A stretch of DNA of 64,000 nucleotides from Escherichia coli (lineage in GTDB: Bacteria > Pseudomonadota > Gammaproteobacteria > Enterobacterales > Enterobacteriaceae). The position numbers and the translations under genes were made by a program. The stretch lies in NCBI RefSeq assembly GCF_003790525.1, contig NZ_CP033633.1; one strand, 5' to 3'. The notes beneath the pieces are model-generated. The model saw only the letters and a program-made list of their open reading frames with translations, had not been told where the DNA came from and did no database searches. Of this stretch, positions 22,595-22,684 are shown piece by piece; position 1 is the stretch's first letter; every line of letters starts with the position of its first letter.

Positions 22595-22641
22595 GGGCGA
22601 CTGGTCCTTATAAGGGACCGTCTAGGGACCGGAGTTCCATT

Positions 22642-22684
22642 GCTACGCCGGAACCGCCGAAATTTCCGGCGTAGCTCTCTCTTG
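22642..22684 (+). terminator. hairpin with 12-bp perfect arms followed by T-rich tract (terminator-like)
   Basis: GCTACGCCGGAA-ccgccgaaat-TTCCGGCGTAGC then TCTCTCTT; 26 nt of it recur at 53284-53309 (one mismatch). Confidence 0.45.

Follow-up and report, generated by a model that had tools for sequence, protein, structure and literature searches.

Two inverted copies of a 26-mer on an avian E. coli plasmid

The window analyzed here, a stretch of 64,000 nucleotides, is part of an avian Escherichia coli plasmid of the I-complex (IncK2/Z-type), such as pE16-3, and it contains a 26-mer in two inverted copies, referred to below as site 1 and site 2. Site 1 lies approximately 2.1 kb downstream of repA (19686 to 20558), after a Phd/RelE toxin-antitoxin pair and an AT-rich gene. 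An earlier note on this DNA, which had been made from the window alone, placed the two copies 3' of two unrelated AT-rich cassettes, the first with two genes and the second with an EEP-family gene. The EEP-family gene was indeed found near site 2 (53332 to 54195, minus strand), whereas the "two ORFs" at site 1 (22050 to 22594) proved to be a single 181-aa gene that a 1-nt deletion in an A-run has interrupted. This gene is intact in two related plasmids (L011 and L012), and its product has a predicted hydrophobic C-terminal segment. Site 2 lies in a 1.5-kb piece that carries a tnpR remnant, the site-2 repeat, and the EEP-family gene and is bracketed by two inverted copies of IS1. Upstream of site 2 are an intact resolvase gene at 46871 and a four-gene ABC/MFS transporter cluster, which we take to resemble eitABCD of APEC plasmids. 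The features of the two sites are as follows, IR standing for terminal inverted repeat.

22631 to 22642, plus strand: possible displaced tip of the site-1 IR, GGAGTT (22631 to 22636), followed by a putative 6-nt insertion, CCATTG (22637 to 22642)
22642 to 22675, no strand assigned: perfect palindrome, the CGGAA-N10-TTCCG of the IR extended by 7 bp
22643 to 22668, plus strand: site-1 IR core, positions 7 to 32, an exact match to the IRs abutting tnpA or tnpR in L003, L006, L009, and L032
22702 to 22739, plus strand: second Tn3-family IR, ISEc63-like, 38 bp, orphan, 27 bp to the right of the hairpin
52111 to 52876, minus strand: IS1 at the left border of the transposon fragment, where it truncates tnpR
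52878 to 53072, plus strand: tnpR remnant (serine resolvase codons 128 to 191), cut by IS1, 100% identical over 64 aa to the TnpR of L006
53069 to 53283, plus strand: decayed small ORF after tnpR, ending just before the IR (from comparison of translations)
53278 to 53322, minus strand: site-2 IR, which in the core transposon is the end near tnpR; now internal and the same as the internal IR in Providencia
53332 to 54195, minus strand: EEP-family gene, a passenger located between the internal IR and the outer IR, the latter missing from the window
54363 to 55128, plus strand: IS1, placed as in the Providencia transposon; the last ~330 bp and the outer IR, which would follow it, are gone

The 26-mer is written as CTACGCCGGAACCGCC(G/T)AAATTTCCG. 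Exactly two matches to CTACGCCGGAACCGCCKAAATTTCCG are present in the window, at 22643 to 22668 (plus strand) and 53284 to 53309 (minus strand), with no further copies in the window when up to 3 mismatches were allowed; 100 shuffles yielded no match to the 26-mer, and 0 are expected by chance. The inverted pair described in the earlier note is therefore confirmed, as is the perfect 12+10+12 palindrome that it reported for site 1, GCTACGCCGGAA-N10-TTCCGGCGTAGC (22642 to 22675), which folds as DNA with −14.8 kcal/mol (z = −3.9). Site 2 has the left arm only and reads ATCTGA after TTTCCG. The homology between the sites stops exactly at the limits of the 26-mer. An ATAAGGG preceding both copies had been listed as a further shared feature; it was rejected as part of the element because its distance to the 26-mer differs (25 nt at site 1 versus 10 nt at site 2) and because two 40-nt flanks share a 7-mer with a chance of 7%, as estimated from random window pairs. 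At site 2, the GGG of ATAAGGG is the displaced GGGG tip of the repeat described below.

Comparison with Tn3-family terminal inverted repeats

The search of genomes for the 26-mer that had been proposed in the earlier note was carried out in plasmids and located the motif at the ends of tnpA/tnpR units. A 45-nt query from site 1 matched 2,379 plasmid records, through the 26-mer alone, and the hosts of the matching plasmids were Klebsiella, Escherichia, Xanthomonas, Pseudomonas, Vibrio, Aeromonas, and others; in a scan of viral contigs, one contig alone matched. The motif adjoins a Tn3-family tnpA in Xanthomonas (L003), Providencia (L006), E. coli (L008 and L009), and a contig of a viral collection (L035), and in all five the TCA or TTA directly after the motif is the tnpA stop codon on the other strand. 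In Kosakonia (L017) and Vibrio parahaemolyticus (L032), it is found at the end that adjoins tnpR. The IR consensus is GGGGTTCTACGCCGGAACCGCCGAAATTTCCG(TCA/TTA), of which the 26-mer represents positions 7 to 32 (~38 bp in all), and the full unit in the sampled records reads GGGGTTCTA(C/A)GCCGGAACCGCCGAAATTTCCG. All of the 20-odd canonical IR copies have the GGGG tip. In both window copies, the GGGG(T) tip (box A, positions 1 to 6) is absent in register, and the copies are consequently relics of IRs rather than intact IRs. We conclude with high confidence that both derive from the ~38-bp terminal IR of a group of Tn3-family transposons that are ISPsy30/Tn4401-like.

Inverted ~38-bp repeats that bracket a Tn3-family transposase unit were found in L006, the Providencia rettgeri plasmid p12100-PER (NZ_CP118865.1, cognate TnpA at 168641 to 171688), together with a 5-bp target duplication around the 6,192-bp element; the window holds two unpaired copies only. 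A tblastn search of the 64-kb window with the TnpA of L006 returned no match at E ≤ 1e-3, so that both copies would be inert as transposon ends. In the Tn4430 transposase-DNA structures, the protein touches positions 1 to 6 (box A, GGGGT) in trans, where cleavage takes place, and sequence-specific binding involves positions 6 to 15 and 21 to 36, boxes B1 and B2 lying further in than box A (PMC9579193). By analogy, the 26-mer would be the transposase-binding core of the IR minus its GGGG cleavage tip, and the same structures suggest that neither window copy is active. In an active element, TnpA (DDE) would bind the inner repeat, cut at the GGGG tip, and transfer the 3' ends, giving a 5-bp duplication, and TnpR would then resolve the cointegrate at res, between tnpA and tnpR.

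This kind of motif is already known. The 21-mer CCGGAACCGCCGAAATTTCCG was published as the IR of MITEPsy2 and described as "highly similar to ISPsy30, Tn3 family" (PMC3189936). The right IR of ISPsy30/MITEPsy2, GGGGTTGTAAGCCGGAACCGCCGAAATTTCCGTC (Bardaji et al. 2011, PMC3189936), contains the exact 21-nt core of the 26-mer and is 32/34 identical to the canonical copy (L004 and L006). Unlike in that repeat, no functional GGGG tip is present in either window copy, the palindrome of site 1 is extended, and neither copy is in a paired MITE. A further IR, reported from Pseudomonas plasmids, shows 28/34 identity (bioRxiv 10.1101/2020.12.23.424275). The parent transposon encodes a TnpA that shares 70% identity with that of Tn4401 over 99% of its length. 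The 34-bp IR of the Pseudomonas preprint is, we presume, the IR of Tn4401. Like Tn4401, the blaKPC transposon, the parent element has a tnpA-res-tnpR module, a 5-bp target duplication, and the same type of IR; unlike Tn4401, it has an EEP-family gene rather than blaKPC as passenger and a third, disabled, internal IR. In a literature search, no paper was found that places Tn4401 in a named Tn3 subgroup.

The 26-mer is thus a published Tn3-family IR and, in this plasmid, ordinary mobile-element debris rather than a new recombination site, and it has been removed from the list of candidates for such sites. Of the proposal that the element marks the end of a common mobile platform, what stands is the end of a Tn3-family transposon; the res, attC, and cassette-end versions of it fail, as set out below.

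Orphan Tn3-family IRs beside passenger-type genes are also found with TnXax1 of Xanthomonas (Ferreira et al. 2015, PMC4337579), whose solo IRs were interpreted as footprints of past transposition or recombination (PMC4337579). TnXax1 itself belongs to another subgroup and was ruled out as the parent by its GAGGG tips, its 92-bp IRs, and its TnpS/TnpT resolution system. A Tn3-derived miniature element of the MITEPsy2/TIME type was likewise sought in the window, where neither copy has an inverted partner. Non-coding elements of ~265 bp with two inverted IRs each, which are MITEPsy2/TIME-like, were seen on an E. coli IncY plasmid (L005, 4997 to 5260) and a Serratia plasmid (L033, 3994 to 4258); they are 93% identical to each other, and no target duplication was found around the one in L005.

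Site 2 and the EEP-carrying transposon

Plasmid p12100-PER contains three IR copies. Two perfect inverted outer IRs, at 4392 and 10583, enclose an intact 6.2-kb transposon with the order IR-tnpA-res-tnpR-IR'-EEP gene-IS1-IR and have the 5-bp direct repeat AGTAA at both sides, and the 149-bp spacer between tnpA and tnpR contains TGTCCG-type repeats (res). The third, internal IR is identical to site 2 of the window. A transposase 100% identical to that of the Providencia element is also encoded on a Proteus plasmid. The PGAP name of the parent transposase is the generic "Tn3 family transposase" only, and the annotations consulted give the EEP-carrying transposon no name of its own. The window (52878 to 55128) matches the Providencia transposon with 99.6% identity over a segment that starts within tnpR and runs through its IS1; tnpA, res, and the outer IR are missing from the window, as is the half of tnpR that encodes the catalytic part. 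The truncated serine-recombinase gene that the earlier note had placed 210 bp from the second copy is the tnpR remnant at 52878 to 53072, and its distance was correctly given.

Read from the tip, site 2 is GGGGTTCT-GGGTTCT-ACGCCGGAACCGCCTAAATTTCCG. Compared with the canonical IR, it has a tandem 7-bp duplication after position 8 (GGGGTTCT[GGGTTCT]ACGCC), carries T instead of G at IR position 23, and reads TGGGTT at the tip register, the real GGGG being shifted by the 7-bp duplication. A V. parahaemolyticus plasmid (L032) carries the core transposon with 95% and 98% amino acid identity in TnpA and TnpR, respectively; there, the site-2 IR has an intact counterpart that shares its inner flank, ATTTGATATTTTAATGAT, which indicates that the ancestral site 2 was a working right end. 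The small ORF between tnpR and this IR is ~91 aa long when intact (Kosakonia L017). Its equivalent in L032 (4037 to 4309) is annotated as "arylsulfatase regulator," and in both the window and L006 it has decayed by an internal deletion and a stop.

These comparisons suggest an order of events. Site 2 would be the former right-hand IR of a core transposon of ~4 kb (IR-tnpA-res-tnpR-small ORF-IR), disabled by the 7-bp tandem duplication in its tip and one substitution. The element would next have moved by means of a further IR beyond the neighboring EEP gene, which thereby became a passenger, and IS1 would later have cost the window plasmid tnpA, the outer IR, and all but a remnant of tnpR. The AGTAA repeat in Providencia flanks the 6.2-kb unit and not the core, which is consistent with this history of movement. 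Nested transposons of the Tn1721/Tn1722 type, with three IRs, have a comparable architecture, in which a core IR-tnpA-tnpR-IR and a passenger segment with a further IR leave one IR internal; the present element differs from them in that its internal IR has a 7-bp duplication that should block its use and in that its transposase is of another subgroup.

The right-hand IS1 of the window lacks its outer 9-bp duplication partner, which indicates an IS1-mediated deletion or inversion. A surviving right end of the Providencia transposon was considered at the IS1 of the 3' edge of the window and was rejected, the resemblance there being loose and AT-rich only. The IR reading explains the local mosaic: the EEP gene arrived in avian E. 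coli plasmids as a passenger of a Tn3-family transposon, of which a Providencia plasmid carries an intact copy.

Site 1, an orphan end downstream of repA

Site 1 has the 26-mer alone in common with the Providencia transposon, and the same applies to any other characterized transposon. Its tip register reads CCATTG in place of GGGGTT, and the GGAGTT 6 nt to the left may be the displaced tip, a reading modestly supported by the palindromic copy in Tatumella (L016), which likewise starts with GGAGTTCTACGCC. In metagenome contig L028, the interior is as at site 1 (the GCGTAG arm, the 27 bp, the second IR, and onward), and the left side has a canonical GGGGTT tip, GGGGTTCTACGCC, joined to an IS66-like flank; accordingly, the right side of site 1 is transposon interior and its left side is outside, the arrangement of a left end. 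No complete parent element with the site-1 interior (GCGTAGCTCTCTC...) was found in the plasmid collection.

The site-1 hairpin is unchanged in >30 plasmids and 8 metagenome contigs, and since these sequences are 95 to 100% identical overall, its conservation neither supports nor excludes a present function. Three relatives have deletions in this region: L011 lacks 22608 to 22692, L014 lacks ~22628 to 22777, and L012 lacks 22719 to 22995. The plasmids can therefore do without the hairpin, which has no fixed link to the upstream gene. The absence in L011 could be read as the empty state of site 1 before it received an insertion, or a miniature element, of 85 bp; this was rejected on the grounds that L014 keeps the left 19 bp of that segment and that L012 and L014 have other, overlapping deletions, so that the losses are independent deletions. 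Site 1 is best explained as the orphan end of a related element, with its tip lost or interrupted, in a deletion-prone patch ~2 kb downstream of repA. The three overlapping deletions in three related plasmids mark 22608 to 22995 as a deletion-prone stretch of 400 bp, and one endpoint of the L012 deletion is inside the ISEc63-like IR.

The ISEc63-like IR, GGGGTTTGAGGGCCAATGGAACGAAAGCGTACGGTAAG (22702 to 22739), is complete, is unrelated to the site-1 IR, and has no partner in the window. On pVir68, the matching stretch (L029, 4001 to 4039) overlaps the 3' end of an ISEc63-family tnpA CDS (4034 to 7042, minus strand). The region downstream of repA therefore carries at least two different Tn3-family ends side by side. 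Tn3-family ends ~1.1 to 2.2 kb downstream of the end of repA were seen in four different IncF or I-complex plasmids (L008 2345, L009 2002, L029 4001, and window 22643/22702). Tn3-family insertion has been linked to the replication forks of the target (bioRxiv 10.64898/2026.05.30.728999), and the repA-proximal ends could reflect such coupling or simple tolerance of insertions there.

Other readings of the motif

The earlier note had pointed to the geometry of the site-1 palindrome and suggested a resolvase binding site. Subsite II of the gamma-delta res site is 34 bp long and has the same 12+10+12 geometry, and site 2 has a recombinase remnant at a distance of 210 bp, so that site 1 might be a res subsite II-like binding site for the intact resolvase (46871) or for the now truncated TnpR. 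The geometry matches, but the half-sites do not: real res regions have TGTCCG(A/T)AA, with nothing in common with the arms GCTACGCCGGAA, and comparison of the arms with the half-sites of both candidate resolvases gave no similarity, on which the idea was rejected. Upstream of the intact resolvase gene, the window has the inverted repeats TGTCCGAAA/TTTCGGACA (46750 to 46840), and the tnpA-tnpR spacer of L006 has TGTCCGTAA...CGGACA. Neither matching half-sites nor a position in a spacer with two further subsites was found for the motif, which occurs at transposon termini and not between tnpA and tnpR, and site 2 lacks the second arm altogether. Identity between the intact resolvase and the TnpR of the transposon is no more than 36%, and there is no resolvase gene within 20 kb of site 1. 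A resolvase site is thus extremely improbable. The repeats at 46750 to 46840, upstream of the resolvase gene itself (46871 to 47461), look like its own res site. An attC-like or other cassette-end recombination site, defining mobile gene cassettes, would fit a hairpin located 3' of AT-rich genes, yet the stem is perfect, with no extrahelical bases and no R''/R' cores (direct reading of 22600 to 22700 revealed no RYYYAAC/GTTRRRY cores at the ends of the site-1 stem), and the plasmid annotation has no integron integrase within ~6 kb of either site. Nor does the motif delimit cassettes, as had been supposed: at both sites the AT-rich gene is found beyond the tip of the repeat, on its outer side; L011 lacks the hairpin yet retains the AT-rich gene of site 1; and the EEP gene, which lies between the internal and outer IRs, is carried along when the transposon moves, the 5-bp target duplication being at the outer IRs. 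We see virtually no chance that this reading is correct.

The site-1 hairpin might, whatever its origin, now serve as a terminator or RNA-stability element for the transcript of the toxin-antitoxin pair and the 181-aa gene. Its strong, GC-rich 12-bp stem lies 48 nt after the last stop codon and is retained in most relatives, but no T-run follows the stem (the tail is CTCTCTCTTGCC), and a consensus terminator scan of 22642 to 22690 on both strands found no site, on which the terminator idea was dropped. L011 does without the hairpin, and the upstream gene is frameshifted in the window plasmid; we consider such a role unlikely. A common intrinsic terminator of one gene family, which the earlier note had named as the finding that would overturn its proposal, is likewise not what the motif turned out to be. 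It is equally doubtful that the relics are kept as binding cores for target immunity against ISPsy30/Tn4401-like insertions. Target immunity is TnpA dependent and needs a specific TnpA-IR interaction (PMC9579193 and its reference 27; PMC10250215), and both relics keep IR positions 7 to 32, which comprise box B1 and most of box B2. Against this, many related plasmids lack one or both relics, and solo IRs are common by-products of rearrangement (PMC4337579).

Hairpin formation across loci

Every copy of the IR contains the quasi-palindrome CGGAA-N10-TTCCG, and canonical copies have these 5-bp arms only. At tnpA-proximal ends the palindrome cannot be extended, because the next bases are the stop codon. 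Extended stems were found elsewhere, with 8 bp in Kosakonia, 11 to 12 bp at site 1 and in L028, and 11 bp at the right end of the L033 element, and palindromes of 17+10+17 that reach both tips occur in Tatumella (L016) and, with a different loop, in metagenome contig L019. The miniature elements of L033 and L005 have three arm differences, all of which perfect the stem in L033, and some of these are inside the IR itself. Several of the palindromic copies were found by a palindrome search, which biases their frequency upward; the L033 copy was found otherwise.

Template-switch correction of quasi-palindromes is a known mutational process (the Ripley model; lacZ quasi-palindrome reporters of E. 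coli). Site 1, and L033 in comparison with L005, resemble its products in that an imperfect repeat was made perfect by "compensatory" changes, and the 12-bp stem of site 1 would most likely have arisen either by such correction or by microhomology deletion between inverted ends; the mechanism is suggested by sequence patterns, and the two 17+10+17 forms fit microhomology deletion better. These double-tipped forms of 44 bp could have resulted from a deletion between the TTCCG of one IR and the TTCCGG of its inverted partner.

It is conceivable, though improbable, that the site-1 hairpin is one instance of a recurrent, non-accidental transformation of the IR at several independent loci. If so, whole transposons may collapse into 44-bp double-tipped "ghost" elements, or tip-less hairpinned IR cores may be kept as TnpA decoys that provide target immunity against ISPsy30/Tn4401-like transposons. 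Repeated conversion of an IR into a hairpin would be a natural example of palindrome correction or of transposon collapse; it also matters for the question whether target immunity against relatives of the blaKPC transposon is still provided by relic IRs.

The 44-bp perfect palindromes, each with two outward-facing IR tips, are located at 6190 to 6233 in L016 (Tatumella sp. JGM91) and at 1897 to 1940 in L019; no target duplication was found around either, and no transposase is adjacent to the one in L019. In Neorhizobium sp. JUb45 (L015, 4442 to 4467), 26 nt that combine the IR core with the palindrome extension, CGCCGGAACCGCCGAAATTTCCGGCG, are matched exactly, in an apparent GC-rich coding sequence and without an IR tip; the chance frequency of such a match in the collection is ~1e-4.
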